The notes: generated by a model from the sequence alone, not told the origin. A stretch of 20,000 nt of DNA from an uncultured virus (IMG/VR IMGVR_UViG_3300035670_000134) (IMGVR_UViG_3300035670_000134), one strand, 5' to 3'. Positions 1,896 through 16,792 are shown, counted from the stretch's first letter. Translations and numbers: made by a program.

Positions 1896-2591
1896 ATGAA
1901 CTACGGAAACAGTGTCAAGGTTTTAAACGAAGGTGCAGTATCTCTGATTGAAGTTATGGGTAGCGACTTAGATGTTGTCAATGCTGCCAGAGTTAGTTTT
2001 TCTGCATACCAAGACGAGATGAATGATAAAGCAGCGGGTCTTGTTAATTATCTTCTTAAGAATAACCATGCAACACCGTTTGAGCATGTTTTGTTTAAGT
2101 TTTACATTAAGTGCCCAATCTTTGTTGCAAGAGAATGGTTTAGGCATAGGTGGTCTTCATTCAATGAGATGAGCATGAGATACTATGTTCCAGATTCATT
2201 AGACTTCTTTTTTCCAAGTGATGAGTCTATTCGTAAGCAAGTTGGTAAGCCGGGTCATTATACGTTTGAGAAGATTGATGATCCAGCAGTTTACGATTTT
2301 GTGACAGAAAAGTTTCAAGAAGCTTACACCGTTGCTGAAAATAACTATTATGAAATGATTGAGGCTGGTATTGCAAAAGAGATTGCAAGATCAGTCCTAC
2401 CAGTTGGTCAGTACACAGAATTTGTCTGGACGGTAAATCTACGTAGTGTAATTAACTTTCTTGCGTTAAGAAATGATGAAAACGCACAGAAAGAAATTAG
2501 ACAGTATGCAGAAGTAATTGAAAACCTTATTTATGCTCATGTGCCTGTAACAATGGAATCGTTTATTAATAACGGCAGGTCAGCGATCTAA
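1896..2591 (+). CDS. thyX: Flavin-dependent thymidylate synthase
   Basis: Motifs VVNAARVS, HATPFEH, PIFVAREWFRHRWSSFNEMSMRY (ThyX RHRxxSxxxxSxRY), EIARSVLP, NLRS and AQKEIRQYA. Confidence 0.97.
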   Translation: MNYGNSVKVLNEGAVSLIEVMGSDLDVVNAARVSFSAYQDEMNDKAAGLVNYLLKNNHATPFEHVLFKFYIKCPIFVAREWFRHRWSSFNEMSMRYYVPDSLDFFFPSDESIRKQVGKPGHYTFEKIDDPAVYDFVTEKFQEAYTVAENNYYEMIEAGIAKEIARSVLPVGQYTEFVWTVNLRSVINFLALRNDENAQKEIRQYAEVIENLIYAHVPVTMESFINNGRSAI

Positions 2592-2905
2592 TGAGAATTG
2601 TTCCTTACGATGGAGATGAAGAGATAGAGGATATTCCTACCTTATCTATCTTGATTAAAGCAATACCTTTTGAAGACGGCTATGCTCCAGCTTTTACGCT
2701 AGTTGCTCCAACTGACGATCACTTTATTTCCATTGATGAAGCAAATTGTTTAATGGATGGGATTGAAATAGCCCGTGATAGAGTCGATGAACTTATTGCT
2801 TTAATGCTACAATCTAAGATTGCGGAACGTTTTGCTGAGCAGCAAATTATCTTGTATGACCAAGATGAGGAGGACGAAGAAGATGATAATGGGGAAGGTG
2901 ATTAA
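2591..2905 (+). CDS. Hypothetical acidic protein
   Basis: Start overlaps the thyX stop (TAATG). The C-terminal tail is acidic. Confidence 0.75.
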   Translation: MRIVPYDGDEEIEDIPTLSILIKAIPFEDGYAPAFTLVAPTDDHFISIDEANCLMDGIEIARDRVDELIALMLQSKIAERFAEQQIILYDQDEEDEEDDNGEGD

Positions 2906-3170
2906 GGATTTTCCTTATCCAGAAAAAAGATGTCCTTACTGCAACACCAAACTAACTCTAGTTAATGCAATTCATTACGAAAATGATCCATATCATTTTA
3001 AAGCTTTATATTTAGATCCAAATCCTAACTGTCCGGTTTACGACGAAGGTGCATTAAAAGGATATGCTCGCATATACTATTCCTCAGAAGAGGCATACTG
3101 GTATTACGGAGATGTAAAGATTCCGGTTCAAAGATGGAATCGTGAAGACTTGTATACGATTTACAAGTAA
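2889..3170 (+). CDS. Hypothetical protein with CPYC motif
   Basis: Likely start ATG 2889 (or 2883) overlapping the previous gene. Protein reads MGKVIKDFPYPEKRCPYC...NCPVY. Confidence 0.7.
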   Translation: MGKVIKDFPYPEKRCPYCNTKLTLVNAIHYENDPYHFKALYLDPNPNCPVYDEGALKGYARIYYSSEEAYWYYGDVKIPVQRWNREDLYTIYK

Positions 3171-3191
3171 TCTGATAAAATAGAAAGTACT

Positions 3192-4241
3192 ATGCCAGTT
3201 GAAAGATGCTCAGACGGTGGGAAGCCGGGTTTTAGATTTGGTGATTCCGGTAAATGCTATACATACACGCAAGGTGATCAGGCGGGTATGAGAAGCGCAA
3301 GAGACAAGGCCCGTGCTCAAGAAAGAGCCGCTTATGCCTCTGGCTTCACAGGAAAATCGTATGACGATACTGAATACGACTTTCTTAATGAATTCCTTCT
3401 AAAAGAAGAAGTTTCAACATACGAAGAATTCCTTGAAGATGTTATCAAAGAGGCTGAGTATGAAATAGTTCTTCCGCCAGATGATCAAGAAGAAGAAGGT
3501 CATGAGCATATGATGCTTGATCGTTTAGATGCCGAAGAGAGAATGTTTGCAAACGCACTTCTTGCTATTACTCAGAAGTATGGAAAGTTTAATGCAGATG
3601 ACGAGGGTGTATGGGTAGGGTTTGAAACTGGTGAAGATAATGAAGATGCAGAGATTGGCGTAAAGTGCTCTAATTGTGTTTTTGCTCACAGCGAAAAGGT
3701 TTGTATGATTATTGAGCAAGAGATTGAGCCAAATGGTAAATGCAGGCTTGCTGTTATTCCTAAAGGTCTTGTCCAACCAGATATGGACGACGAAGACGAC
3801 GAAGATGAGGACGATGAAGAAATGGACAAGGTGACCTACGGTCGTCCCGGTCCAAATGATCCAAGAAAGACTCCTGCTAAGCCATCCGAAAGGCGTAGAG
3901 GATCTTCTAGAAACCGATCTGGTTCTGCAGAAGGCGGTTCATCTGTAACATTCTCGGATGCAGTAACACGCTCTCTTAAGACAAAGATGGATACTCATAA
4001 CGACAAGCACGGCGATGCAGCATCAAAGCGTGCTACAATGGCCGCTCTGAAAGCGGTTTACAGGCGTGGTGCTGGGGCTTTTTCAACCTCACACCGTCCG
4101 GGTATGACAAGAGGTCAATGGGCAATGGCGAGAGTCAATGCTTACCTTTATCTGCTAAGAAACGGCAGACCGTCAAATCCAAACTACAATACAGATAACG
4201 ATCTTTTGCCGAAGGGTCACCCCAGAAGCAGCAAGAAGTAA
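3192..4241 (+). CDS. Multidomain phage protein with a HiPIP-like 4-Cys segment and a basic C-terminal domain
   Basis: 349 aa. N-terminal PVERC..GKPGFRFGDSGKCYTY module, central CSNC-x7-C-x12-GKC-type segment, acidic linker, and C-terminal LKAVYRRGAGAFSTSHRPGMTRGQWAMARVNAYL, which resembles DUF5824-type viral domains from memory. Confidence 0.8.
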   Translation: MPVERCSDGGKPGFRFGDSGKCYTYTQGDQAGMRSARDKARAQERAAYASGFTGKSYDDTEYDFLNEFLLKEEVSTYEEFLEDVIKEAEYEIVLPPDDQEEEGHEHMMLDRLDAEERMFANALLAITQKYGKFNADDEGVWVGFETGEDNEDAEIGVKCSNCVFAHSEKVCMIIEQEIEPNGKCRLAVIPKGLVQPDMDDEDDEDEDDEEMDKVTYGRPGPNDPRKTPAKPSERRRGSSRNRSGSAEGGSSVTFSDAVTRSLKTKMDTHNDKHGDAASKRATMAALKAVYRRGAGAFSTSHRPGMTRGQWAMARVNAYLYLLRNGRPSNPNYNTDNDLLPKGHPRSSKK

Positions 4242-4254
4242 TAAGGAGATAAAA

Positions 4255-4626
4255 ATGATCATTAATCTACCGTACGATAATGTTGAGGTTATGAAGTCTC
4301 AGCATGAACGCATGAAGACATGGAATGAGAACATGATGAAGCAGCATGAAGCTGCTGCCTCATGGCATCAATCACAAATTGAAGAGCTTGAGAAGGCAAT
4401 GGTAAGAGTTCCTTTAGAGCCTGAGCAGAAGCCAGCACCTAGCGCAGGCGGTTCCCGTGGTTCATCGACTGATGGCCCAGATGCTGCCGCTCCTGCACCA
4501 GTTCAGGTACCGCTTGATCCTATGAAGAAGGCAGACCTGATTAGCATTCTTGAGGATCATGCCGCTCAATTTGGTGATTTTTCCAAGTCGGTTGAAGAGA
4601 TTGCTGAGCTTATCCTTGGTGAGTGA
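4255..4626 (+). CDS. Hypothetical protein
   Basis: Strong RBS TAAGGAG. Helical N-terminus and a Pro/Ala/Ser linker. Confidence 0.8.
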   Translation: MIINLPYDNVEVMKSQHERMKTWNENMMKQHEAAASWHQSQIEELEKAMVRVPLEPEQKPAPSAGGSRGSSTDGPDAAAPAPVQVPLDPMKKADLISILEDHAAQFGDFSKSVEEIAELILGE

Positions 4627-4832
4627 TGGACTCGGCAGGTATGTCCGCAATTATTGTCGCGCTTATAACGACATTAGGTGCGGTACTTGTTGCAATGTTT
4701 AACTCGCTTAGAAAAGAAAATCGGCAAGATCACAATGTCGTTAGGGACAAGCTAGAAAAATTGGATGAAGATATCAAGCATATTGATAACAAACTTGATG
4801 ATCATATTCAATGGCACCTTGACGATAAGTGA
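4623..4832 (+). CDS. Small membrane protein (one TM helix plus coiled coil; holin-like architecture)
   Basis: Hydrophobic AIIVALITTLGAVLVAMF followed by a heptad-like segment ending LDDHIQWH. Overlaps the previous stop. Confidence 0.7.
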   Translation: MMDSAGMSAIIVALITTLGAVLVAMFNSLRKENRQDHNVVRDKLEKLDEDIKHIDNKLDDHIQWHLDDK

Positions 4833-4919
4833 TATAATATAGTTCGTGGTAAAGCCCTTGGCTGTAAGTATTTCGTAAGATTATTTATGGTGCGGGGGCT
4901 TACCCATTTTCGAGGTTAT

Positions 4920-5267
4920 ATGGAAACCCCTTTTTACCCCATCGTTGAAGTTTTCTGGAAAGATCACTACGCCATCGGTGACGAGTGGTATGATGAGGTC
5001 GGGAAAAGGGATGTCAGGATTATTTCCGCTATCGGATATCTTGTTGATGAAGACGAAGACTATTACTACATTGCTGCCAACTACGATTTTGGAAATCATA
5101 CTTTTTCCTCTGGGACTGCTGTTTTAAAAAATTGCATAATAAGAAGAAGGGTACTCAGTAAAGGTAAATTTAACTATGATCAGTTTTCAGGAACAAGAGC
5201 GTCTGATGAAAATCGTAAACGCACAGCACTCTTTAAAAAATTCGGAAAAGACCCGGGCTGGAGCTAG
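4920..5267 (+). CDS. Hypothetical protein
   Basis: GAGG before ATG 4920. IVEVFWKDH...AIGYLVDEDEDYYYIA is a pattern common in small phage proteins. Confidence 0.7.
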   Translation: METPFYPIVEVFWKDHYAIGDEWYDEVGKRDVRIISAIGYLVDEDEDYYYIAANYDFGNHTFSSGTAVLKNCIIRRRVLSKGKFNYDQFSGTRASDENRKRTALFKKFGKDPGWS

Positions 5268-5613
5268 TGTTATTGTCGGCTTTAAGGATGAAAAGTCTTT
5301 AAAGCAAATTATTGCTCACTATCAAATAAATGAAGATGACGCAAAGTATTGGTGGGAGTATTTTGGCTTCTCTGGTAGTTCTGTTGAGAAGAAAACAAAG
5401 ACCCGGAAAAAGAATCATATCTTTGAGTTTCTTAAAGAGAATGCCGGTTCAGAGATTACTGTAAAAGATCTTTGTGATAAGTGTTCTATTAGCCAGCCAA
5501 CAGCATACAAGTTTGTTAACGATAATATTGGATGGTTCAAAAAAGTTAAACGAGGTTTATACCTTATTGTCGATGCTGATGAAGAAAGAAAGAAGGCAAA
5601 GAGCAATGGGTGA
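5176..5613 (+). CDS. Putative winged-HTH DNA-binding protein
   Basis: C-terminal IFEFLKEN..EITVKDLCDKCSISQPTAYKFV...FKKVKRGLY has a wHTH pattern. Confidence 0.65.
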   Translation: MISFQEQERLMKIVNAQHSLKNSEKTRAGASVIVGFKDEKSLKQIIAHYQINEDDAKYWWEYFGFSGSSVEKKTKTRKKNHIFEFLKENAGSEITVKDLCDKCSISQPTAYKFVNDNIGWFKKVKRGLYLIVDADEERKKAKSNG

Positions 5614-5902
5614 AATAGAATACGCTGTCCGTGAACATGACGTAACCAATGAAGAAGACTTAGTTCAGGGAACTGTAATGTATACAGTTTATGGTAAGAA
5701 TGGGCCTTGGCATGATATGGTTACTGGTCCCGCAGATTATTGCTGGGAGATTGTTGACGCACTTCAGTTCGTTGAGGAAATAAGAAGAGAAGAACGTAAA
5801 GTGTACGGTGAAAATGATACTGTTCGGGCACGTCGTAACCCACCAAAAACAGCCCATGTTGACACAACGAAGACAGGGTCTGTTATATACTATAAGTCAT
5901 GA
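5606..5902 (+). CDS. Hypothetical protein
   Basis: ATG 5606 overlaps the previous stop. Protein begins MGEIEYAVRE. Confidence 0.65.
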   Translation: MGEIEYAVREHDVTNEEDLVQGTVMYTVYGKNGPWHDMVTGPADYCWEIVDALQFVEEIRREERKVYGENDTVRARRNPPKTAHVDTTKTGSVIYYKS

Positions 5903-6063
5903 ACGATAAAGGTTCAGACCCCATCGGGCCAGAATCAATTATTATTCTAAGATGCTGCCGGGACTGGCCGGTTCAGGCTATGATCGCTATGAGAAAAGGA
6001 GGCAGATGTGGATTCTGCGGAAGAGATCCAGAAGTCGTCTTTGAACGATACACAAGACAGTGA
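5899..6063 (+). CDS. Small Cys-rich protein (54 aa), below the ORF-track cutoff
   Basis: ATGA overlap with the upstream stop. Translation MNDKGSDPIGPESIIILRCCRDWPVQAMIAMRKGGRCGFCGRDPEVVFERYTRQ contains CC...CxxC. Confidence 0.5.
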   Translation: MNDKGSDPIGPESIIILRCCRDWPVQAMIAMRKGGRCGFCGRDPEVVFERYTRQ

Positions 6064-6403
6064 TGAACCTTTAGAGGAAGTTCTCTCTATTTTAGGTGAC
6101 ATTGCTGCTGAGATAGAAAGCGGTGCTGAAGTTAAAATGAAGCACCCATCAGATTTTTATTATTCAGCAGCACAAGAAGTTATAGAACTCAAAGCCCGGA
6201 TTAATGAGCTCGAGATTATGCTTGATGGTGCCAAGAAAGGCGTTGAAAGATATGTCTTCGGTAAACTTGAAATCACTGACGAGCAAGGTGAAGTAATCAC
6301 TGTGCTTGATGAGTGGGTTTCTAGAGAGCTTATTGAAGGCGCAATTTCAACATATGTAATAAAGGGAATCATTAAAGGAACAGAGTATCTTGAAAACAAT
6401 TGA
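6008..6403 (+). CDS. Hypothetical acidic/coiled-coil protein
   Basis: Open frame with AAGGAGG upstream. The true start could be ATG 6137. Confidence 0.65.
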   Translation: MDSAEEIQKSSLNDTQDSDEPLEEVLSILGDIAAEIESGAEVKMKHPSDFYYSAAQEVIELKARINELEIMLDGAKKGVERYVFGKLEITDEQGEVITVLDEWVSRELIEGAISTYVIKGIIKGTEYLENN

Positions 6404-6935
6404 TAAGACATGGCAAGAAGCAGCCAATGAGGCTATTTCTCAAATCTACACGATGACTGTAGAAAAGAACTTTGATCAAAGCCAAACACTCGTTCGTTTT
6501 ATGCGTCATCGGTTTAATCAAGAAATTCAAAAGTTTGAATTTAATCAATCTATGACCGTAGAAACAGACCCTTCAGTCTGGAGCTTTATTGGTCGTCATG
6601 CTCTTAGGCTATTGTATCTTGAAGGATACTATCCTGCTCAAAACTATGTTGTAGAACTTTTGATTCGCAAGCAAAAGGATTATGGTCCTGAGAACATTGC
6701 CCGGTTTGGGAATGTGGGTCTTCTTATCAGAATGCACGACAAGATTGCCCGGTTAGAAAACATTCTTGAACGTTCCAAGAATAATTTCAACACGGCGGTT
6801 TCTGTCAATATGGTAGAGGACGAAACCATTATCGATACCCTTATCGATATTATCGGGTATTCGGCTATCGCTATCATGTGGTCAACAATCGATGCCGAGG
6901 GGCGGCGGGCCTTCCTTTACCGTGTGGCCGACTGA
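6390..6935 (+). CDS. DUF1599 / nucleotide-modification-associated domain 1 (Nmad1)-like protein
   Basis: RKQKDYGPENI...GLLIRMHDKIARLEN...DETIIDTLIDIIGYS matches the KxxDYG / RxxDKxxR / ExxxDTxxDxxxY pattern of this all-alpha family. Confidence 0.8.
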   Translation: MKTIDKTWQEAANEAISQIYTMTVEKNFDQSQTLVRFMRHRFNQEIQKFEFNQSMTVETDPSVWSFIGRHALRLLYLEGYYPAQNYVVELLIRKQKDYGPENIARFGNVGLLIRMHDKIARLENILERSKNNFNTAVSVNMVEDETIIDTLIDIIGYSAIAIMWSTIDAEGRRAFLYRVAD

Positions 6936-6946
6936 ACTACTAGGGA

Positions 6947-6992
6947 TTGCGTGCAATTGCGTGCAGTTGCGTGCAGTTGCGTGCAGTTGCGT
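6947..6992. repeat. Tandem 10-bp repeat GTGCAGTTGC, about 4.5 copies
   Basis: Directly visible: ttgc GTGCAATTGC GTGCAGTTGC GTGCAGTTGC GTGCAGTTGC gt, flanked by TAGGG on both sides. Confidence 0.95.
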
Positions 6993-7003
6993 AGGGTTGA
7001 TTA

Positions 7004-7540
7004 ATGAATCTTCAATATCTTGACTTCAAATACGGCATCCGGCCTCATGAGGCCAAATGGCTTATGTCATGCGACCATCTTGCCAAAACGTTTTCAACAT
7101 GTGCGAAACGCCAATATTTTGCCGTTATCATCGGTGACAACAAACGTTTGTTATCACAAGGATACAACGGGTCACCGCCCGGCATGGGGCATTGTAACGA
7201 AGGATATTGTCCGAGATACAAAAACGGTTCCCCGTCGGGCAGCATATATGACGACTGCATCGCCACACACGCCGAAGCAAACGCCATCATGTGGGCCGAC
7301 CCGCACGCCCGCAAAGACGCCACGCTTATTATAAATGGCTCTCCCTGCTATGGATGTGCCAAATTGATAGTTAACAGCGGCATACGGCGAATTATAGGGC
7401 AATCAGACGAAACCTACGCACAAGAGCAGCACGTATACAGCTTCCTACTTCAGAACAGAATTGACACAATTCTGCTGAAGAAAAATGAAAACCGGAAAAT
7501 CCGTCAGATTATCGATCAACACATATCGTCTATCTTGTGA
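7004..7540 (+). CDS. Deoxycytidylate (dCMP) deaminase
   Basis: STCAKRQ, GYNGSPPG..HC, HAEANAI and PCYGCAKLIVNSGI zinc-deaminase motifs. Confidence 0.93.
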   Translation: MNLQYLDFKYGIRPHEAKWLMSCDHLAKTFSTCAKRQYFAVIIGDNKRLLSQGYNGSPPGMGHCNEGYCPRYKNGSPSGSIYDDCIATHAEANAIMWADPHARKDATLIINGSPCYGCAKLIVNSGIRRIIGQSDETYAQEQHVYSFLLQNRIDTILLKKNENRKIRQIIDQHISSIL

Positions 7541-7625
7541 CTCAACCTATAGCTCCCTATTCTGTAGAGCCTAACAAAACTTAAAACCAGCTCTAACCCC
7601 CCAGATTTTTCCCAAAGTCTTCCCC

Positions 7626-7650
7626 AGCCCGGCTAACCCCCGGGCTTTTT
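7626..7650 (+). terminator. Intrinsic terminator closing the AT-rich + strand operon
   Basis: AGCCCGG/CCGGGCT stem followed by a T-run. Confidence 0.7.
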
Positions 7651-7808
7651 CCATTCCCTCAAACTTCCAGCAAAACTATCCTAAGGAAACGCCGACCCAA
7701 AACAGCAAAAAAATTTAATATATATTGGAAGAGGGTAATGCGAAGGCTCCGACCCTTGTATTTACTTGTCTTACCCTGGGTCAATCACCAACAGGGTGAG
7801 ATAGGGGG

Positions 7809-7837
7809 TTGACGTTGGGCGATGGGGTCATTACGGT
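7809..7837 (+). promoter_or_regulatory. Housekeeping-sigma promoter at the start of the GC-rich block
   Basis: TTGACG-N17-TACGGT. Confidence 0.65.
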
Positions 7838-8004
7838 TCCACTCATCGAAGCCGCCCCGGGGCACCGGGCCATAGCGGCGGAGGCCGGTCGGGGCGACCG
7901 AGCACCTAGGTGCGATGCCCCCCCGATCGGGCCGGGATCTAGGTAGCCCGGTACCCTACTGGGGGCGCATGGCGATGCGCCCACGACCCCAAAGGGGGTG
8001 TCCA

Positions 8005-8403
8005 ATGGACGCACTGCTCACGCAGGGTATGTCCAAGCCGACCCGGGATGAGTACACTGCGGCCGCTACTGCGGTCACAGAGTACGCCGGGAGCGGCGCC
8101 GCATCGAACCGGTTCGCCCGGGACGCTGGCAACGTTGCGATGTTTCTCATCGCACTCACGCTGGCCGACCGGATGGATCTCGCCCCGGCCGGACTGGCCG
8201 ACCGGCGAGACTGGGTCCGGTCGGGCGGTTCGGCAGTCACGGCCCGCGACGGTGACTGGGACCGACTGGTCCCGGGCGGTTCACGACCGGACCAACGGTG
8301 CCAGCGTCGGCTTATGTCGGCACTGGCACTGCGGACCGGCCGGGCGATCCGCCTCGACTGGGTCAACGTCGATGGGACATTCTGGCTGGTCCGGACACGG
8401 TGA
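8005..8403 (+). CDS. Hypothetical protein, paralog family A copy 1
   Basis: AAAGGGGG RBS before ATG 8005. Shares SGAASNR, SRPDQxxQRRLMSALAL and RLDW...TFxxVRT with 9440-9808. Confidence 0.85.
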   Translation: MDALLTQGMSKPTRDEYTAAATAVTEYAGSGAASNRFARDAGNVAMFLIALTLADRMDLAPAGLADRRDWVRSGGSAVTARDGDWDRLVPGGSRPDQRCQRRLMSALALRTGRAIRLDWVNVDGTFWLVRTR

Positions 8404-8409
8404 CCGACG

Positions 8410-8434
8410 GTCGGGGGGGTGCGATCCCCCCGAC
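8410..8434 (+). terminator. GC-rich hairpin after family A copy 1
   Basis: GTCGGGGGG...CCCCCCGAC inverted repeat without a U-tract. Confidence 0.5.
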
Positions 8435-8506
8435 CCGGGTCACCCCGGGAGTATCGAATACCGACCGGGCGCACGGAATGCGCCCATGACCCGAAAGGGG
8501 GACGCA

Positions 8507-8794
8507 ATGTCCACACTACAGCGTATCGGGGCCGGTTTCGGCCTCGCCTGCGGCATCATCATCGCCGCTATCGGGATGGATCTCGCATGGGATACCATCG
8601 CATCGGGCGAGTTGGTCGGGGCGTTTATCGTCCTCGCATTCGTCGCCCTGCCCGGGATGGGCACGGTCGTCGGACTCACGGTCGCCATGTACCGGGAGGA
8701 CATGGCCCGGGAGAGCCGGGAGTGCTTGGGCGGTTGGCACTGCTGGTGCCCCGCCTGTACCAACTACCGCACCGGGGTGGATCTCCCCGAATGA
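8507..8794 (+). CDS. Small two-TM membrane protein with Cys/His-rich tail
   Basis: RBS GAAAGGGGG. Two hydrophobic segments followed by CLGGWHCWCPAC. Confidence 0.75.
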   Translation: MSTLQRIGAGFGLACGIIIAAIGMDLAWDTIASGELVGAFIVLAFVALPGMGTVVGLTVAMYREDMARESRECLGGWHCWCPACTNYRTGVDLPE

Positions 8795-8799
8795 CCGGA

Positions 8800-8847
8800 A
8801 CGGCCCCGGGGCTACGGCCCCGGGGCTACGGCCCCGGGGCTACGGCC
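8800..8847. repeat. Tandem 14-bp repeat ACGGCCCCGGGGCT, about 3.4 copies
   Basis: Directly visible. Each unit contains the palindrome GCCCCGGGGC. Confidence 0.95.
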
Positions 8848-8885
8848 ATGTACCGGCCAAGGTCGGGCCGGTCGAGTAGGCCAGG

Positions 8886-9158
8886 GTATCCACAACATAT
8901 CCACAGGCTGTGGACAACGGCATATCCACATGTTTGTCCACACCTGTGGAAAACCCGAGTTATCCACAAATCCACAGGGGTTGTCCACAGGCTTATCCAC
9001 AATCCACAGATTATGGGTGATATCCACAGGGTTTTCCACAACGTTACCCCCAGAATTGTCCACAACCTGTGGAAAACACTGTGTACAACCTGTGGAAAAC
9101 CCCAGGAAATCTGTGGAAAACTTTTTGTCCACAGGGTTATCCACAGCCCTGTGGAAAA
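8886..9158. promoter_or_regulatory. Dense array of about 21 DnaA-box-like 9-mers in both orientations
   Basis: TTATCCACA at 8960, 8993, 9137. TTGTCCACA at 8934, 8981, 9056, 9125 and reverse at 8909. TTTTCCACA at 9032 and reverse at 8945, 9068, 9091, 9112, 9150. Variants at 8886, 8897, 8922, 8968, 9000, 9020, 9080. Confidence 0.9.
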
Positions 9159-9439
9159 CTTTGCCGGGTGTTGGGCGACGCTCTTTCGAAATTGCGCCCA
9201 CACCCGCAACTATGTTAAGAAACACCGTTAGAAATTGAGCAAATGTAATGTTATCGAACGTTGTTATGGTACAGGTGTTGTGAAACCAATACCATTATGC
9301 AACAGCATTATGAAACCATGTTTGGATTATGGGTAGGTTTTCTGGTTGCATTTGCAATCGAGCAGAGTTTGGAATTGGCCAATCTGACTAGATAGGCTGA
9401 CCTTGTTGGTGAACAAGCGAGCCAACAGAAAGGGGAGCC

Positions 9440-9808
9440 ATGAAGGCTCACAAGGTCAGCAAGGAAGAGCAGGAGCAGGCTCTGGCTCTCTGCACAGAGT
9501 GGAAGGAGAGCGGTGCCGCTTCGAATCGGTACAAGGTGGACAAGGCGAACGTCTTGCTCACCGCTCTCGCTCTGAGCGCGACCCGGATGAAGGTCGCTCC
9601 GGCTCCGCTCGCAGAGCGTCGGGAGGCGGTGAAGAGCGGAGCGGTGGAAGCGTTCACCGCAGAGTGGGACGCTCTGGTGGAAGGTGAGAGCCGACCCGAC
9701 CAGAAGGTGCAGCGTCGGCTCATGTCGGCTCTGGCTCTCACCGGAGCGAAGGTGCGGCTCGATTGGTGCCGCATCGGGGATACCTTCTACATCGTCCGCA
9801 CCGGCTGA
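9440..9808 (+). CDS. Hypothetical protein, paralog family A copy 2
   Basis: RBS AAGGGGAG and a possible TTGGAA-N18-TAGGCT promoter upstream. Clearly homologous to 8005-8403. Confidence 0.88.
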   Translation: MKAHKVSKEEQEQALALCTEWKESGAASNRYKVDKANVLLTALALSATRMKVAPAPLAERREAVKSGAVEAFTAEWDALVEGESRPDQKVQRRLMSALALTGAKVRLDWCRIGDTFYIVRTG

Positions 9809-9830
9809 GCCGGAGCGGTACCCTCCCACA

Positions 9831-9863
9831 AGGGAGCCGGTGCTACGGCATCGGCTCCCTTTG
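9831..9863 (+). terminator. Intrinsic terminator
   Basis: AGGGAGCCGGTGC/GCATCGGCTCCCT stem followed by TT. Confidence 0.75.
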
Positions 9864-10110
9864 TCATGTACCGGTGCCAGTCGAGCCAGGATCATCCACC
9901 AACGTTTTTAACGTTAAGAAATAAGATAAGCTACGCCCACGTTTTTAACGTTAAATTATTTACGATGTTTATTATGGGGCTTTAACGTTAACTTCAGTCA
10001 GATACACTTTATGGGATTTTAATTTAACGTTACAAGAAATAGGTTGCAATTGCTTTCGAGATTTGGTTTACTACTACTGTCCCAATGTTTCCTACCAAGG
10101 AGTGTTCGAT

Positions 10111-10491
10111 ATGTCCGATTCAATCATCCCGAATGCCATCGGAATCCAAGATTGGATTACCGATTTCCCCGTCCAGATCCTTACCGTTAACAACGGCGAG
10201 GTGCACTTCAAGGTGGAAATCTTCGGCCGGATCTGCGAAGGCCGTCTCCCCGTCGATTTCTTCAAGTTCATCCCCCCCTACAACGACGGGGGGATTCTTT
10301 GTGGAGAGTGGATTTCTCCACAAGGTTGGGCATGTGCGCCTGCAGTTTGGGCGGATGATCCGTATTCGGGGAAGCCGAGTCGGGCAGATGGACCCTGTGA
10401 TTCGTGCACCAATACTGCTGATGTAATCTGCTCAACCATCAACGAAGAGAAGAGTCTGTGCCAAGACTGTTTCGAAACCTTGTTCTTGTAA
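10111..10491 (+). CDS. Hypothetical protein with C-terminal Cys cluster
   Basis: RBS AAGGAG before ATG 10111. Contains CDSC...C...LCQDC and is followed by a terminator. Confidence 0.75.
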   Translation: MSDSIIPNAIGIQDWITDFPVQILTVNNGEVHFKVEIFGRICEGRLPVDFFKFIPPYNDGGILCGEWISPQGWACAPAVWADDPYSGKPSRADGPCDSCTNTADVICSTINEEKSLCQDCFETLFL

Positions 10492-10513
10492 CCACCTACC
10501 GTTAAGAAACGGA

Positions 10514-10542
10514 AAGACCCCGGCCATCTGGCCGGGGTTTTT
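10514..10542 (+). terminator. Intrinsic terminator
   Basis: GACCCCGGCCA/TGGCCGGGGTT stem plus T-run. Confidence 0.85.
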
Positions 10543-10734
10543 CTTACGTTAAAAACATACTAACGTTAAAAAACACGTAACGTTAAAAAATGGCGGGTGC
10601 TTCGGTGCGAATACCAGCGCCTTGCACCCGTGAGTTTTTAACGTTAACCATACTGAAATTGATTATGGGATCTTAACGTTACCCTTCAGCAAATACACTT
10701 TATGAATTACCAATTTAACGATAGAAGAAAAGTA

Positions 10735-10764
10735 TTGCGTATTGGACTCGACCATGCATAAAAT
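10735..10764 (+). promoter_or_regulatory. Cassette promoter
   Basis: TTGCGT-N18-TAAAAT preceded by an A-rich tract. Confidence 0.6.
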
Positions 10765-10816
10765 GGGCGAAGCCCGGTGGGAATGGCCCACCGGCAGGAC
10801 GGAGGGAGAACCCAAC

Positions 10817-11179
10817 GTGAAGAACGGAACAGAGTACGTCAAGGTCACGAATCTGGAGAACGGTGACAGACTGGCACCGGATTTCATCGAGAAGAATGAA
10901 AAGGTCTGGACGTCCATCATCGTGACCCACAATCTGACGTTGGACGCCGACCATGTCATCGGGAACACGTTCGTTATGAATCAATTCCGCAGGCCGGAAG
11001 TGATCGTGATCGGCACCCTGCCTGCCGGTGTGGTACAGGAATCGGAGTACGGCGATGCAGGCATCGAATTGCACGTTGAGTGCCGGTGGGATTCTCTGGA
11101 GGACGGCTACCAGTGCGCGGCCCGGGGCATCGCCGCTATCCTCGACCCGGACTGCACGTTCGAGCGTTACAAGAAGTAA
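10817..11179 (+). CDS. Hypothetical protein
   Basis: GGAGGGAG RBS before GTG 10817. Bounded by a promoter and a terminator. Confidence 0.75.
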   Translation: MKNGTEYVKVTNLENGDRLAPDFIEKNEKVWTSIIVTHNLTLDADHVIGNTFVMNQFRRPEVIVIGTLPAGVVQESEYGDAGIELHVECRWDSLEDGYQCAARGIAAILDPDCTFERYKK

Positions 11180-11200
11180 TCTACCGTTAAGAACGTCAGA

Positions 11201-11232
11201 GAGGCTCCGGTCGAAAGGCCGGAGCTTTCTTT
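11201..11232 (+). terminator. Intrinsic terminator
   Basis: GGCTCCGGTC-GAAA-GGCCGGAGCT followed by TTCTTT. Confidence 0.85.
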
Positions 11233-11420
11233 GCGTTAAAAATATTCTAACGTTAAGAACATCCTAACGTTAAGAAGGCGGGTGCTTCCGTCAGAATACC
11301 ATGACATTGCACCCGCGAGTTTTTAACGTTAACTATCCTCAAGTTTATTATGTGATCTTAACGTTAATTGTCGTCGTTACCTTTATGGGGAAAATCAATC
11401 CTAACGGTAGATTGATAGAG

Positions 11421-11450
11421 TTGCTTTTTGCTTACCAATGGAACTAGGCT
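11421..11450 (+). promoter_or_regulatory. Cassette promoter
   Basis: TTGCTT-N18-TAGGCT. Confidence 0.55.
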
Positions 11451-11487
11451 AGGGATTCCAAGCAATCCCGACCCGAAAGGAACCGCA

Positions 11488-11757
11488 ATGACGAACCGCG
11501 AAATTTCCGAACTGGCTAACAACATCGTGGACAGACTCCACGAACTGGCCGAGGCAATCGATTCGGTCTACTACGAGGAGTGCGCCGATTCGGCCTGCAC
11601 CAACGCCGAGCCTCTGAACGACACGTTCCGGGTTCTCCGTCATCTTGTTGCTACCGCCGGGCTTGTTAACGCTAGCGGTCTGTGCGACCTGTACAACAAG
11701 CCCGAATGGGTCACGGCGCATGCCTTCATGACCCTTGACTACGAGTGGAACATCTGA
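11488..11757 (+). CDS. Hypothetical protein
   Basis: GAAAGGA RBS before ATG 11488. Protein begins MTNREISELANNIVDRL. Confidence 0.75.
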   Translation: MTNREISELANNIVDRLHELAEAIDSVYYEECADSACTNAEPLNDTFRVLRHLVATAGLVNASGLCDLYNKPEWVTAHAFMTLDYEWNI

Positions 11758-11776
11758 CCGTTAAAAAGGAGAAGCC

Positions 11777-11878
11777 ATGAACCACCCGTTGGGATGGGAG
11801 TTCACCGTTAACTTCTGGATCGTGGTGCTCTGTACATGGGGCATCATCGGTCTGGTACTCAGAGGGAAGGGGGACTGA
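11777..11878 (+). CDS. 33-aa single-TM peptide, not in the ORF track
   Basis: AAGGAG RBS. Translation MNHPLGWEFTVNFWIVVLCTWGIIGLVLRGKGD ends just before a terminator. Confidence 0.6.
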   Translation: MNHPLGWEFTVNFWIVVLCTWGIIGLVLRGKGD

Positions 11879-11886
11879 ACGTTAAG

Positions 11887-11915
11887 AACCCGGGGAGGTG
11901 GACCCCGGGTTTTTT
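11887..11915 (+). terminator. Intrinsic terminator
   Basis: AACCCGGGG/CCCCGGGTT stem plus T-run. Confidence 0.85.
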
Positions 11916-12089
11916 AACGCTTGAAATATTCTTAACGTTAAAAGCTGGCGGGCGTAACGTTAAACGACGCTTAACGTTACGCCCGCAGATTTTTAACGAT
12001 AAGAAAGCACAAGTTTATTATGAGATTCTAACGTTACTATTCACTTAATACACTTTATGGATTACCAATTTAACATTACAAAAAAAGTG

Positions 12090-12117
12090 TTGACTATGTA
12101 TGCCGTTCTGCTAGGAT
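12090..12117 (+). promoter_or_regulatory. Promoter for a probably leaderless transcript
   Basis: TTGACT-N16-TAGGAT with extended TGn. ATG lies 6 nt downstream with no RBS. Confidence 0.7.
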
Positions 12118-12123
12118 TCCGGT

Positions 12124-12327
12124 ATGAAGAAATGGGAGAAGGAAATAGCCGAACTAGCAGCCGAGTTCGGCAGGGCTATCGTTAAGACAAACGGTGGTCA
12201 CTACAAACTAGTTCGCCCTGGCTCTCAACCGGTGTTCGTTTCTTCCACACCATCAGACTTCAGAACGTTAAAGAATACTCGTCGGGATCTACGGCGACAT
12301 GACAACCGGGAAGGAGGTGAACGTTAA
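12124..12327 (+). CDS. HicA-like (dsRBD-fold) toxin/mRNA interferase-like protein
   Basis: 67 aa basic protein with G..IVKTNGGHYKL..PG...VFVSSTPSD.R...N.R.DLRR, the pattern of phage HicA-like proteins with the conserved His in GH. Confidence 0.7.
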   Translation: MKKWEKEIAELAAEFGRAIVKTNGGHYKLVRPGSQPVFVSSTPSDFRTLKNTRRDLRRHDNREGGER

Positions 12328-12328
12328 A

Positions 12329-12484
12329 ATGAAGAAGATGTATTACGTCTGGAATGGCTACTACGTCGAACATCAGGGCACGAAGGAGTCCTGCGAGGAG
12401 TTCATCCGTAACGCTAAGTACATGTTCGGCACGACCGGCCTGTCCATCGTCATCCAGAAGAACGGACGTTACGTCCCCGCCTGA
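12329..12484 (+). CDS. Hypothetical small protein (51 aa)
   Basis: AAGGAGG upstream. Protein begins MKKMYYVWNGYYVEH and is followed by a terminator. Confidence 0.7.
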   Translation: MKKMYYVWNGYYVEHQGTKESCEEFIRNAKYMFGTTGLSIVIQKNGRYVPA

Positions 12485-12492
12485 ACGTTAAG

Positions 12493-12526
12493 AATCCGGC
12501 TCTTACCCCCCGAGAGCCGGATTTTT
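12493..12526 (+). terminator. Intrinsic terminator
   Basis: AATCCGGCTCT/AGAGCCGGATT stem plus TTT. Confidence 0.85.
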
Positions 12527-12858
12527 AACGCTTAGACAAAAGTTAACGTTAAAATGCGGGTGTAACGTTAAGCACACCATTAACGTTACACCCGGGGTTT
12601 TTAACGTTAAGATTCGTCTGGCTTGAGTTTATGTTTTTAACGTTAGCCCGCCCTTTATGGAGCTTAACGTTAGGCAATCGACATGAGCTTTATTAACGAT
12701 AGCCGGAAGTTAACGTTACGGGGCAAACTCGACCCAGATCACCGTAATGAGATCGTAATAATCCTGTAACGTGTCTGTCACCACAAACGCAGTCGGATTA
12801 GGTATCGTTCTAGGTGTTGGGAACAAGCCCAACACAGAGCACCGAAAGGGTGACCGAC

Positions 12859-13158
12859 ATGGCAGCGAACAAGAACAACGACTGGGCATTCGAAGAGATC
12901 GACGAGAGCGAGATCACGGCCGTGCGCCGGGGGCGCAAGAGCAACGTCGATCCGGCGTTTGTGGAGGCTCTCAAGGGGATGACCCCCGGCCGGGCGATCC
13001 GCATCCCGGCGCAGGCTCTCGATCCCAAGGCACCGACCTACAAGACCGACAAGGCCCGGGTCTCGGCCTCGCTCCGCACGGCGATGCGTGCGGCCGGTCA
13101 CACGTCGTTCACGATCGTGTTCTCCCCGGAGGGTGTCCCGCAGATCCGTCTCAAGTGA
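12859..13158 (+). CDS. Small basic putative DNA-binding protein, paralog family B copy 1
   Basis: GAAAGGG RBS, 99 aa, RRGRKS motif. 72/99 identical to 14147-14446 by manual ungapped alignment. Confidence 0.88.
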   Translation: MAANKNNDWAFEEIDESEITAVRRGRKSNVDPAFVEALKGMTPGRAIRIPAQALDPKAPTYKTDKARVSASLRTAMRAAGHTSFTIVFSPEGVPQIRLK

Positions 13159-13178
13159 CCCCCCATCCCCCCCCGGAC

Positions 13179-13208
13179 AGCCCCCGGCCAACAGGCCGGG
13201 GGTTTGTT
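13179..13208 (+). terminator. Intrinsic terminator
   Basis: GCCCCCGGCC/GGCCGGGGGT stem plus TTGTT. Confidence 0.8.
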
Positions 13209-13446
13209 CGTGGTCGAGTACTCCTAACGTTAAGAACCTCCTAACGTTAATTTTTTTTGACGATAGAATCTTAACGTTAAAGACTCATTCCTTAACGTTA
13301 AGAACGGCGGGCGTAACCGTAACAACAAGTAGTGTTACGCCCGTGGATTTTTAACGTTAAATGTTGCTATCTTTATTATGTGTTTTTAACGTTAAACCTT
13401 AGCCATAAACTTTACACCTCGACCAATTAACATTAGAAAAAAAGGC

Positions 13447-13474
13447 TTGTGATCCTGGCCTAATCTGATAACCT
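13447..13474 (+). promoter_or_regulatory. Promoter for a probably leaderless transcript
   Basis: TTGTGA-N16-TAACCT with TGn. ATG lies 6 nt downstream, the same geometry as 12090-12124 (both end GGT-ATG). Confidence 0.6.
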
Positions 13475-13480
13475 ACTGGT

Positions 13481-13795
13481 ATGCGAATGAGTGAACGTAC
13501 CCCATGTCAGAACTGCGGTCTCCGGATGGCCGTCCCCGCTGTGCTCTGCACCCGCTGTGCGGCGTCCAGAGAGATTCGGGAACAGTTTAACGTTTGGACT
13601 CCGGCCGACCTTGACCTGACCGACCTGACCCATACCGAGCGCATGCTCGCATTCATCTATTGCGTGACCGGTGACATTTCCGACTACTTCGATCACTTTG
13701 TCGTTAAGAACGACGAGGTCGAGGAAGAGGACACTCTTAACGTTTCGATCAGGTACTGTGATAATCGGATTAACTTCGGTAAATACAGGGCATAG
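13481..13795 (+). CDS. Hypothetical zinc-ribbon protein
   Basis: CQNC-x10-CTRC. Bounded by a promoter and a terminator hairpin at 13808-13835. Confidence 0.75.
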   Translation: MRMSERTPCQNCGLRMAVPAVLCTRCAASREIREQFNVWTPADLDLTDLTHTERMLAFIYCVTGDISDYFDHFVVKNDEVEEEDTLNVSIRYCDNRINFGKYRA

Positions 13796-14146
13796 TCCTA
13801 CCGTTAAAAACCCCGGCATCCAGTCGGGGCTTTTTAACGCTTAAAAATATGTTAACGTTAAAATCGGAGGGTGTAACGTTAAAAGCCCTTAACGTTACAC
13901 CCGAGCGGTTTTTAACGTTAAGATTATGAAGTTGAGTATGAATTCTTAACGTTAACCCGGCCTTTATGGGACTTAACGTTAACCAATCTCTTTATGAGCT
14001 CTTAACGATACATACTCGACCGCACTCGACCGCCTCCTGGTTGCATTTGCAACTATCGGATAGGGTGGAAATGTTGGGATGGGCGATAGCGTTTCCAATG
14101 TCACCTAAGGGACTGAAACGGAAGTAGGTCCAGAACGGAGAATGAC

Positions 14147-14446
14147 ATGGCAGGAAAGACGACTCACGGATGGGACTTCGAGGAGATCCCTGAGGACGAG
14201 ATTCAGGCGGTCAGGCGTGGACGGAAGTCCAACGTGGACCCGGCTCTGGTGGACGGACTGCGGACCCTCACGCCGGGTCGCGCCATCCGCATCCCCTCGC
14301 AGAAGTTGGACCCGACCGCGGCCAACTACCGGACGGAGAAGGCGCGCGTGTCCGCATCCCTGCGGGTCGCCATGCGCGCGGCGGGGCACACCTCCTTCGC
14401 CATCATCTTCTCGCCCGACGGCGTTCCGCAGATTCGCCTGAAGTGA
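14147..14446 (+). CDS. Small basic putative DNA-binding protein, paralog family B copy 2
   Basis: GGAG RBS, 99 aa, homologous to 12859-13158. Confidence 0.88.
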   Translation: MAGKTTHGWDFEEIPEDEIQAVRRGRKSNVDPALVDGLRTLTPGRAIRIPSQKLDPTAANYRTEKARVSASLRVAMRAAGHTSFAIIFSPDGVPQIRLK

Positions 14447-14453
14447 CCGGTGT

Positions 14454-14483
14454 GCCGGTGAGGGTCGAGTGACCCTCACCGGC
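14454..14483 (+). terminator. 13-bp perfect hairpin after family B copy 2
   Basis: GCCGGTGAGGGTC-GAGT-GACCCTCACCGGC. Confidence 0.7.
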
Positions 14484-15594
14484 CAGGGTCTACCGTTAAA
14501 TTTTTTTTCGGTCGAGTTTCTTAACGTTAAAAGCCAGGGGAGAAGAAGTTAACGTTAAGAAACAACCCGAGTCAGAACTTAACGTTAAGAACCGGCGGGC
14601 GTGACCGATTGATCGGTGAAATGACACGCCCGTTTATTTTTAACGTTAAGAATTCAAAAAGTTTAATGTATTTCCTAATCCGTTTTCTCATCATTTATCC
14701 AATCTATTAATTCTAATTACCTTTATGGGTAACGTTATGCTAATACTGGTTCGTTTTTAACGTTAAGAATGGGTTCAGGTGGAGTATGCGGTCTTAACGT
14801 TAAGTTCCTATGACTGATCTATTCCCTTACTCAATCCCTTATCTCTTGTTACCTTTATGCTCGACCTATATAGGGAGCAGTATAGGTAGCAGTATAGGTA
14901 CCTAAACCCTGGCGGATTAGATGTCTATATCTCTAGGGAATAAGAACACTTAATAGACCCCCAAAATCCCCCGCAACTTTCGTTGTATATATCATCGTTG
15001 TAATTTGGACTAATAGGGTCATTAAATCGATCACCGTCCAAATCGACACATTTCCCCCCACATTTGCCGGTTGTACGATAGTTATATCTATCAGTTCTTT
15101 TTTTATTTAACGTAGATCCCTTTATGGGCGTACCTACACTACGTTAGGTTACTGAAGACATAGATAAACCCTTACCCAACCCGGCCGGGTTAAAGTGTTC
15201 TTCTTCCTATATAGGGGTATACACACAACCAATAAGCCTATCTATTAATTTACCTAGGGATAGATAAAAAAAGGCGGGTTAAGTGTTTCTATTCTCCTAT
15301 ATAGGGGAGAACACAACACCTAACCCGCCTAATTTCTTAAAACTGTTAAAAATCCCTAGGAAAATAACAAAAAGCGTACCTTTCTGAGCAAAAACACCAG
15401 CAAATTCAACACATCCTGAGCTTTATTGTGCACATAAACCGAGAACGCTGGACACGTTTAGGGTATTTGCTGTATCAATCTATGAAGGAATTAATAGAGG
15501 TGTATCGATATCTGGGGAGTGTAGATACATCTATCTATGTATGTTCCTATATACATAATACCTACCCTAACCCCGCCGGGGTTCGTACCTCTAT

Positions 15595-15819
15595 TCAGAA
15601 AGGTTCATTCGGATCGTATTGCTTATTAGGATACGTATTCTCATGAATACCGGCATATGTTTCCCAACGGACCGACCTTATCTGATATACAACAGTCCAT
15701 CGTGTATCACAGCCAACACACTCATACTCTTCAATCATCTCATTAGGAGGCATATCCATACGTGACTGAAAATCACCATACGATTCCCCGCACTCAGGAC
15801 ACATATCAGGCTCTTTCAT
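15595..15819 (-). CDS. Hypothetical zinc-ribbon protein
   Basis: CPEC...CVGC. GGAGG precedes ATG 15819. Last gene of the minus-strand run. Confidence 0.7.
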   Translation of the reverse strand: MKEPDMCPECGESYGDFQSRMDMPPNEMIEEYECVGCDTRWTVVYQIRSVRWETYAGIHENTYPNKQYDPNEPF

Positions 15820-16009
15820 TAGCCGCCTCCATAGCATGGAAAGCACACTCGAACAGATTCACTTCATTACCCAAAGAATCAAACCAAACCCCCGAAGAAT
15901 CCTTGTAGTAATCAGAATCCCAACCCCACTCTTCAAGATTAAGGTAATCATTAGAAGCCAACCAGGCACCCAACCTTGTACCCTGAGAGAACAAAAGCCT
16001 ATTATCCAT
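15806..16009 (-). CDS. Hypothetical protein
   Basis: GGAGGAG RBS and overlapping start/stop with neighbours. Confidence 0.7.
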   Translation of the reverse strand: MDNRLLFSQGTRLGAWLASNDYLNLEEWGWDSDYYKDSSGVWFDSLGNEVNLFECAFHAMEAANERA

Positions 16010-16218
16010 CAGTACTCCTCCCCGCTAGAATCAAACAAAGAAAAAGTCCTACTCGTTGACCTAAACTCTGTATGCAGAAGATTGTCGATATGAATCAAAA
16101 CATCATCAAGATCAGGATTCTCATTACCAGAAGCAATAAGCTCCCGAACAATATCCTCAGTCACATAACGAACACTCAGAACAGCATCAAAGTATTCCGG
16201 CATATCATTCTTCATCAT
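16009..16218 (-). CDS. Hypothetical protein
   Basis: AAGGAG RBS supports a start at 16218 rather than 16305. Confidence 0.65.
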   Translation of the reverse strand: MMKNDMPEYFDAVLSVRYVTEDIVRELIASGNENPDLDDVLIHIDNLLHTEFRSTSRTFSLFDSSGEEY

Positions 16219-16225
16219 GTTCTCC

Positions 16226-16453
16226 TTATCCATTGACAACGATCCTTTTCGCAATTTCCTTAGCCGCATCTGACCAATACTCGCCACCTTTGTCCATCGC
16301 ATCAATAGGATGCTTCAAAGTAGCGACATACCATTCGAGTTCCCTAGATCCTTCAGCCCACTCACAAGCATCATCAAAACTTGCGAAAGGACCAAAAAGC
16401 TCGAACCCCTCAAAGATATTTCCCGATAAAACTATATAAATCTTATCCATCAT
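16226..16453 (-). CDS. Hypothetical protein
   Basis: GGAGGG RBS. The G...GFELFGPF...A.EW pattern is common in small phage proteins. Confidence 0.7.
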   Translation of the reverse strand: MMDKIYIVLSGNIFEGFELFGPFASFDDACEWAEGSRELEWYVATLKHPIDAMDKGGEYWSDAAKEIAKRIVVNG

Positions 16454-16649: not shown

Positions 16650-16792
16650 AGCAAACTACCTCCACAGTCCTCTCAGACCCCTCTAATTTTGCTTCTAAGA
16701 CGAATAAAGCATGGGGCTTGCAAAACACCCCATGCCCATTCTTAAATTACAATTGTCCTTATGATAATTGTTTTGTAGTATTAGGATTATTC

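Follow-up and report, generated by a model that had tools for sequence, protein, structure and literature searches.

Why should a phage of the lytic type carry, between two of its genes, a tract packed with sites for DnaA, the protein that initiates replication in nearly all bacteria? The question is raised by a 20,000-nucleotide stretch of DNA from the uncultured virus IMGVR_UViG_3300035670_000134 (the window, by which we mean the whole of the stretch analyzed), in which a DnaA-box array lies at 8886..9158. A first-pass annotation of the window had offered two alternatives, namely that the phage recruits host DnaA to start its own replication, or that it carries a purely DNA-encoded inhibitor that titrates DnaA and blocks host initiation. 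We find that the array is probably an element kept by selection, expandable and optional, that occupies the non-coding DNA separating two transcription units in a large lytic-type siphophage whose host is probably an actinobacterium, and that a DNA-encoded DnaA sink would fit this anatomy better than the origin alternative. Phages are known to attack host replication by means of proteins; to our knowledge, a DNA-encoded DnaA capture device on a lytic-type phage has not so far been demonstrated.

The DnaA-box array and the phage that carries it

The array, to which we assign no strand, comprises 21 DnaA-type 9-mers (listed box by box with the pattern NNNTNCACA), 14 on the plus strand and 7 on the minus strand, which agrees exactly with the first-pass description of about 21 boxes in both orientations, nearly abutting over ~275 bp. 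The TT[AGT]TCCACA consensus is matched perfectly by fourteen (five TTGTCCACA, six TTTTCCACA and three TTATCCACA), and the other seven consist of one TTGTACACA and six core-only boxes (ATA three times, and GTA, AAA and CAA once each). The same annotation had recognized canonical boxes and the type preferred by actinobacteria among them, and TTGTCCACA is given in Table 1 of PMC4285127 as the high-affinity box of S. coelicolor and M. tuberculosis. The window holds 17 copies of TTNTCCACA against 0.77 expected (sd 0.94), a number reached in none of 200 shuffles, and 14 of the 17 fall in 8909–9158; likewise, the TCCACA core, for which 10.7 occurrences are expected, is present 33 times, 20 of them within 8889–9155. 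Box bases make up 186 of the 273 positions of the array. Neighboring boxes are 2–4 nt apart at 14 of the 20 gaps and 2–3 nt apart at 10 of the 20, these closest gaps defining seven tandem pairs ("double boxes") and three convergent pairs. In the account of PMC11317965, the in vivo binding unit of E. coli DnaA is such a "double DnaA box" of tandem boxes 2 or 3 bp apart, which the array contains seven times, although that rule was set for E. coli DnaA and the host here can be named only as probably actinobacterial.

As a bacterial yardstick, we collected loci by the pair TTGTCCACA-GGN-TTATCCACA, which gave at least 120 bacterial loci, and measured the 75 that had full flanks. In their densest 300 bp, the median is 3 cores and no locus exceeds 14 cores or 12 perfect boxes. 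The array reaches 20 cores and 14 perfect boxes over the same length and surpasses, in both respects, every one of the 75 loci sharing its box pair.

Metagenomic assemblies bear on both the reality of the array and its conservation. Contigs of the probable source study (in Logan) cover 8818–9900 without any difference and break at a 14-nt tandem repeat. A lake-water run of another study (X5) yielded a 1570-nt contig that covers 8810–9209 with 9 differences and 2 indels (~97% identity) and extends from the array into the upstream genes of the window. Within the array, this contig carries five substitutions and two one-base insertions that leave all TCCACA cores untouched, one of the substitutions converting ATATCCACA to TTATCCACA; the cores occupy ~44% of the array, and by a rough estimate, seven changes placed at random would spare every core in ~2% of cases. 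Taken together, the classical variants, the double-box spacing and the conserved cores suggest that the sites of the array are almost certainly DnaA sites. In a second X5 contig, 138 letters replace 8826–9160, a length consistent with the short form of the array described below, so that, if the short form is judged by its length, this one lake sample contains both forms. Matches of 33 nt inside the array in runs X1, X2 and X4 were set aside as box pairs of other organisms, which are uninformative for this phage.

The nearest viral record (G001; 23.7 kb, estimated by CheckV to be 23% complete) is 100% identical to window 1–18786 and over the 901 bases searched. The phage-type flanks seen at first pass are borne out by genes for a glycosyltransferase, ThyX, a dCMP deaminase and a tRNA-Arg in the window, and by two further genes of G001, for a portal protein and for an intein-containing class II ribonucleotide reductase. 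The reductase, of the B12 type, lies at window 1–400 on the minus strand and continues in L144:6387–9368, its intein having a LAGLIDADG homing-endonuclease domain. The portal is 44–48% identical (E 1e-127 to 1e-132) to those of Streptomyces phages of ~127–130 kb, and the two annotated ones examined among these siphophages are Stanwilliamsviridae, with which an actinobacterial host appears plausible. The TTTTCCACA boxes and ThyX had suggested a cyanophage host, an idea dropped once the portal pointed to actinophages, and ThyX proved uninformative as a taxonomic marker, its best match being only 45% identical. Against 50,697 phage records, megablast with the whole window found no close relative, and blastn with 7600–10000 found as its sole match a 63-nt box repeat in Microvirus mar31.

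An exchangeable module in a terminator slot

Paralogous genes that we call A and B flank the array, and an alignment of their family retrieved 19 related metagenome loci, of which the 17 that cover the relevant boundary are informative; these include near-duplicates and amount to about two short-form types, two box-less types and one long form. The first-pass annotation had held that absence of the array from related phages would speak against it. We found it there in a shorter form, as a 5-core cluster at the same syntenic place in 11 of the 17 loci (L124–L130, L133, L137, L140 and L141). This short form begins with a 17-bp inverted repeat that contains two boxes and lies ~12 nt past the stop codon of a membrane-type gene, followed by three direct boxes 9–12 nt apart and then by a hairpin. 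The inverted repeat is itself strongly folded (−33.9 kcal/mol, z −9.6) and has no T-run, and its box pair is invariant across two divergent short-form types whose surroundings are unalignable.

The remaining 6 of the 17 loci are box-less: L131, L132, L134 and L138 have three TAACGTTA palindromes, and L135 and L136 have neither element. Two comparisons locate the edges of the exchange. From the hairpin right of the last box onward, L133, with boxes, and L131, with palindromes, are 99.9% identical (760/761). As far as the left edge of the cluster, L135, without boxes, and L137, with boxes, are 97.7% identical, and at that very position L135 shows a canonical terminator with a 12-bp GC stem, a 4-nt loop and a T-run. 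Because a terminator or palindromes replace the boxes between such sharp boundaries in near-identical relatives, the DnaA module occupies an exchangeable terminator or insulator slot. With box numbers of 0 in 6 of the 17 loci, 5 in 11 of the 17 and 21 in the lineage of the window, the module is accessory and variable in copy number.

The slot belongs to a larger architecture. The phage is ~40% GC overall, rising to 68% in 7800–8800, and at 9400–14500 genes of 50–69% GC alternate with spacers of 35–51% GC, a mosaic that, taken over 7600–14500, recurs in the relatives. A block of such small genes, with AT-rich spacers of one common grammar, spans 9909..14802 (no strand assigned). Of the 43 copies of TAACGTTA in the window, where 0.42 would be expected, 42 are in spacers between 9909 and 14795. 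Each spacer runs from an intrinsic terminator through 2–4 TTAACGTTAA palindromes to a GGCGGGTG...CACCCGC hairpin with a T-run, then to TTATTATGNG and, 4–9 nt on, to a palindrome ahead of the next gene. The TTATGNG element is strand-specific, with 13 of its 15 plus-strand matches falling in 9011–15122. The same grammar is found in the relatives L125, L126, L129, L133 and L142, with 28 copies of TAACGTTA in L125, and is absent from the cultured relative Wakanda as regards TAACGTTA-type palindromes. This spacer system is probably the operator/promoter system of a phage regulator.

This series opens with the array spacer, in which DnaA boxes stand in for the palindromes of the other spacers; this spacer retains the hairpin, GATTATGGGT (at 9325, with an extra copy at 9009) and the GGTTGCATTTGCAA element. 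Its hairpin, a GC-rich structure directly right of the last box (9164..9206, plus strand; −24.5 kcal/mol, z −4.5), is the counterpart of the GGCGGGTG...CACCCGC hairpin of every spacer and forms the right recombination boundary of the box module in the relatives. The extra GATTATGGGT, a copy of the TTATGNG element inside the array (9009..9018, plus strand), has a DnaA box 2 nt downstream where ordinary spacers have a TAACGTTA palindrome within 4–9 nt. The AT-rich spacer that follows (9207..9439, plus strand), likely the promoter-leader of B, has elements common to the other spacers, namely degenerate palindromes, the second GATTATGGGT (9325–9334), GGTTGCATTTGCAA and a Shine-Dalgarno-like GGGGAG. 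As the array spacer shares grammar elements of every spacer in the block, this AT-rich stretch is a generic promoter spacer. The first-pass annotation was right that the DNA after the array is AT-rich, though it is nothing special, all spacers of the next 5 kb being equally so.

The leader of B also contains a stem in its 5′-untranslated region (5′-UTR), in which GTTGG (9405–9409) pairs with CCAAC (9422–9426) in a weak fold (−8.6 kcal/mol, z −2.1). Upstream of the B start in L124–L134, this stem keeps its pairing through two-sided changes, as GTCGG/CCGAC in L125 and GTCGG/CCGGC in L124. Elsewhere in the block, a second pair of paralogous small high-GC genes (12814–13155 and 14117–14443; 73% identical over 100 aa) suggests duplication and shuffling of cassettes at the common spacer elements. 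Past the block, a 1-kb gene-free zone (14442–15430) lies between converging plus- and minus-strand genes, with TATAGG-type repeats and a long hairpin at ~15270–15345, and may be a terminus, one end of a repeat region or another control region.

Candidate functions of the array

We tentatively posit, at somewhat less than even confidence, that this is a non-origin DnaA-capture array, one that would obstruct or insulate transcription locally through bound DnaA and would serve as a sink at high copy number. Under this proposal, DnaA dimers would load on the seven double boxes with 2–3-bp spacing and on the convergent pairs, and spread as a nucleoprotein block over ~270 bp. Locally, the block would stop or insulate transcription coming from the unit of the dCMP deaminase, A and the membrane-type gene before it reached the promoter region of B, and read-through past the array would depend on the free DnaA of the cell. 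In this respect, PMC11317965, citing Schaefer and Messer 1988, describes DnaA bound in a transcribed region as a roadblock that obstructs RNA polymerase. On the scale of the cell, every new phage genome would contribute 21 mostly high-affinity sites, so that phage replication is proposed to deprive the host origin and the DnaA regulon of DnaA. By this combination of roadblock and sink, the array would work like the bacterial non-origin DnaA-box clusters and not like oriC. The slot it occupies, its exchange with a terminator or operator-like palindromes, its optional presence, its expansion from 5 boxes to 21, the surplus of consensus sites and the missing hallmarks of an origin all favor a capture array of this kind.

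Several points weigh against the capture proposal. Twenty-one sites far exceed the need of a roadblock, and the version in the window has a GC hairpin (8800–8847) upstream of the boxes that could terminate transcription alone. With a single phage genome in the cell a sink would achieve little, and what a lytic phage would gain from one is conjecture. The independent lineages behind the exchange are fewer than 17, since the informative loci include near-duplicates. The cultured relatives have their boxes in their largest gene-free gap, a typical place for an origin. Finally, since origins of the Streptomyces type are long and box-rich (~950 bp), the lack of an AT-rich DNA unwinding element (DUE) is weak evidence against an origin; we know of no obvious DUE in the literature on such origins.

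A DnaA-dependent replication origin of the phage, an oriC mimic, is the strongest competitor, although we regard it as rather unlikely. It would have DnaA oligomerize on the boxes, open the hairpin and the AT-rich spacer and recruit a helicase of the host or the phage, the strong boxes outcompeting the host origin. The cluster of 21 boxes, 14 of them perfect, is of the kind found in oriC-type origins, being dense, phased, in both orientations and next to AT-rich DNA; it is built of box types that also characterize actinobacterial and general origins (PMC4285127), and its box pair is common in bacterial genomes, with Actinomycetota accounting for 33 of the 80 titled loci (among the at least 120 retrieved). 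Cultured Streptomyces relatives point the same way. Wakanda, Comrade and DekoNeimoidia have 5–9 copies of TTNTCCACA per genome, with three perfect TTATCCACA within ~280 bp in Wakanda and in DekoNeimoidia and two ~200 bp apart in Comrade. In Wakanda (L158, 118,767–120,140) and Comrade (L279, 121,472–122,934), which represent two phage genera, a cluster of 3–4 boxes is kept in a homologous, conserved gene-free gap of ~1.4 kb, where a tandem box pair and an inverted partner are accompanied by a further box 200–255 bp off; we found no annotation of this gap and no paper on it.

Structure and general precedent can also be read in favor of an origin. A DnaA-dependent primosome assembly hairpin (A site) has a DnaA box in its stem, and inverted box pairs, present as the 17-bp stem with two boxes in the relatives and as three convergent pairs in the window, could form hairpins of this type. 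The box clusters of plasmids and of P1, too, are usually part of origins.

Against these stand the particulars of the locus. DnaA-trios, reportedly described by Richardson and colleagues in 2016 as at least three repeats of 5′-[T/A]A[G/A]-3′ in register beside a box, form no run of three or more on either strand of 8795–9439, and the other spacers show a few chance runs of 3–4. The least stable 60-mer in 9150–9440 (−73.0 kcal/mol) reaches only the 91st percentile, with 15 separate places in the window less stable. The adjoining AT-rich stretch, raised at first pass as a possible unwinding element, is a generic promoter spacer, and the AT-rich part and the hairpin are present in every spacer of the block. 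The cumulative GC skew, another of the checks proposed at the outset together with the trios, makes no turn at the array, which is weak evidence as the skew tracks gene orientation. The 35 window ORFs scanned include no dnaA, dnaN or rep gene, as the first-pass annotation had stated, and no Rep, initiator or helicase-loader family; as for an iteron-type origin like those of P1 (oriR), F and R6K, TAACGTTA, the sole repeat apart from the boxes, is dispersed through every spacer of the 5-kb block. An origin is also hard to reconcile with a module whose box number varies from 5 to 21 and which near-identical relatives lack, having a plain terminator instead.

An extension of the capture proposal, which we consider unlikely, is a DNA-only, self-titrating DnaA switch. 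Early in infection, with a single genome copy and host DnaA in abundance, the protein would coat the 21 boxes and block read-through at the cassette boundary; as phage copies rose, free DnaA would collapse, silencing the host origin and the DnaA regulon and lifting the roadblock. If this were true, the phage would count its own copies via a host protein and without any phage-encoded inhibitor, and the growth from 5 to 21 boxes would reflect selection for a stronger sink.

It is quite improbable, in our estimate, that the main ligand of the sites is a phage protein, such as a member of the A/B family, instead of host DnaA, in which case the resemblance to DnaA boxes would reflect convergence or deliberate competition. 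A and B do lie on either side of the module, both in the window and in those relatives that bear it, 6 of the 21 boxes lack the TT of the E. coli consensus, and the model of B ends in a helix and a beta-hairpin, with weak fold matches that include winged-helix DNA-binding domains (Z 2.8–4.2). All of these matches are, however, under the stated noise level of the tool, including the best VIA-align match (Z 4.5), and the best Foldseek match has an E of 0.098. The variants are the three classical high-affinity boxes at the double-box spacing of DnaA. The association with A and B is loose, since boxes are missing from four loci that have B (L131, L132, L134 and L138) and from two that have A (L135 and L136), and no B homologue exists in the 50,697 phage records, yet cultured relatives carry box clusters.

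More doubtful still is a function of the T5 type, in which a region of boxes and inverted repeats in an early untranslated zone would tether or arrest the entering DNA at membrane-bound DnaA (an injection stop) or organize the entering genome. According to 10.1101/866236, T5-like phages have eight boxes, in pairs 3 bp apart, in the inverted repeats of their untranslated iss region, and the author judged a role in replication unlikely. This account, which the first-pass annotation overlooked in stating that lytic phages are not generally described with such arrays, is the only printed phage precedent that we found. The array resembles it in its numerous inverted repeats and inverted pairs and in boxes paired at 3-bp-type (2–3 bp) spacing, it borders a block of small genes that each have a promoter of their own, and its phage belongs to the large siphophages. 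The T5 model is itself only a hypothesis, though, there is no sequence similarity to T5-like phages by blastn or megablast among the 50,697 phage records, and the module is optional among close relatives.

That the array is an artefact, either a chance cluster or a piece of a bacterial oriC joined by mis-assembly (a concern raised at first pass), is virtually ruled out: the source-study contigs do end at the 14-nt tandem repeat just left of it and the flanks differ strongly in GC, but the box count is unreached by shuffling, the nearest viral record is identical, the lake-water contig of another study links the array with the same upstream genes, boxes occupy the same syntenic place in 11 related loci, and high-GC genes with AT-rich spacers are a lineage-wide trait, so that independent contigs and synteny in relatives exclude a mis-assembled oriC piece.

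The natural series of 0, 5 and 21 boxes in near-identical flanks, together with cultured Streptomyces relatives that have a small cluster, makes the role of phage-borne DnaA boxes directly testable.

Flanking genes, other viral arrays and known systems

Upstream of the array, the dCMP deaminase (7004..7540, plus strand; Pfam PF00383 at 6e-13, PHROG 174 at 1.7e-33) is the last gene of ~47% GC ahead of the high-GC cassette block. It is followed by A (8032..8400, plus strand), a 68% GC gene for a member of an unannotated family of ~122 aa that falls in the A-type subfamily of the family alignment, and by a gene for a small membrane-type protein with a Cys-rich tail (8486..8794, plus strand), which starts at 8486 or 8507, has a third-codon-position GC of 0.84–0.90 in its frame and closes the upstream unit; its hydrophobic stretches are predicted from the translation. 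The order deaminase, A, membrane-type gene and boxes is kept in L126, L128, L140 and L141, and continues to B in all of these except L141. Between the membrane-type gene and the array lie three exact tandem 14-nt GC-rich units with the palindrome GCCCCGGGGC (8800..8847, no strand assigned; −41.5 kcal/mol, z −3.5), which form a strong hairpin without a T-run at the position that an intrinsic terminator takes in the other cassettes. A scan of 7400–10200 for sigma-70 promoters and terminators gave counts no higher than the shuffle level, and Rfam found a tRNA alone, with no known RNA family in the spacers.

Downstream, B (9440..9808, plus strand), whose confident model (pLDDT 91.4) has no relative in the PDB, is of the same family as A, the two being diverged paralogs on either side of the array with 52% identity (E 1.6e-33, tblastn of B against the window). 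The family has 23 homologues, all of them from metagenomes only and without Pfam domains, which form two conserved subfamilies. It has no match in Pfam or PHROG, no relative in IMG/VR contigs by single sequence or by alignment, and no member in 185,579 species genomes, hence no prophage or host clue.

Dense box arrays are found in other viruses as well. In Microvirus mar31 (L123, MZ089777.1), a single-stranded DNA microvirus, positions 1917–2085 hold 11 exact tandem TGTGGAAAAcc units with one more box upstream, all on one strand, in a non-coding region of ~630 nt between the capsid and pilot-protein genes. The unrelated IMG/VR contigs L097, L083, L115, L023, L025, L122, L036, L073 and L024 contain arrays of 7–12 cores per 300 bp, mostly tandem and with 2-nt gaps, which in L083, L097, L115 and L122 are followed by a G-rich GGGGAGGGG-type motif, with an AT-rich stretch next in L083, L097 and L115. 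These look like a recurrent module of a different build. Since dense arrays recur in unrelated viral contigs, a microvirus included, the use of DnaA sites by phages looks widespread and little documented in print: full-text searches found no paper on phage DnaA-box decoys and none treating a DnaA box in Microviridae, and the single paper found on Streptomyces phages and the DnaA box was unrelated.

Among known systems, the oriC of Streptomyces, given in PMC4285127 as ~950 bp and box-rich, shares with the array many close boxes in both orientations, including TTGTCCACA. Unlike actinobacterial oriC, the array has neither dnaA/dnaN synteny nor DnaA-trios nor a dedicated unwinding element. The iss region of T5, as presented in 10.1101/866236, is likewise phage-borne, with pairs 3 bp apart and inverted repeats in non-coding DNA among early-type genes, and was judged an unlikely origin. 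It differs in having 8 boxes, half of them non-consensus, over two inverted-repeat units, whereas the array has 21 contiguous and mostly perfect boxes and no homology to it; moreover, the T5 boxes lie inside the terminal repeat, and the phage here is read from ~25 kb of its genome (estimated by CheckV at 23%), without its ends.

The DnaA roadblocks at asnC-mioC and guaB, in the description of PMC11317965, resemble the module in that boxes stand downstream of a transcription unit, the boxes here replacing the canonical terminator of the relatives. There, one or two chromosomal boxes are involved, whereas here it is a phage module of 5 or 21 boxes whose roadblock role is putative.

Titrating clusters offer a further parallel, and Streptomyces has one; the IHF site is specific to datA and DARS2, and actinobacterial IHF differs. 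E. coli datA and DARS are non-origin DnaA-box clusters, and the DnaA-box clusters (DBCs) of B. subtilis are described in PMC3245932 as lying away from oriC and holding DnaA. The region 8886–9158, with several consensus boxes clustered outside a chromosomal origin, is of the type of the DBCs and datA, which affect the timing of initiation and some of which regulate neighboring genes. The array differs from them in being phage-borne and far denser (21 boxes in 273 bp), in multiplying with the phage genome and in occupying a terminator slot.

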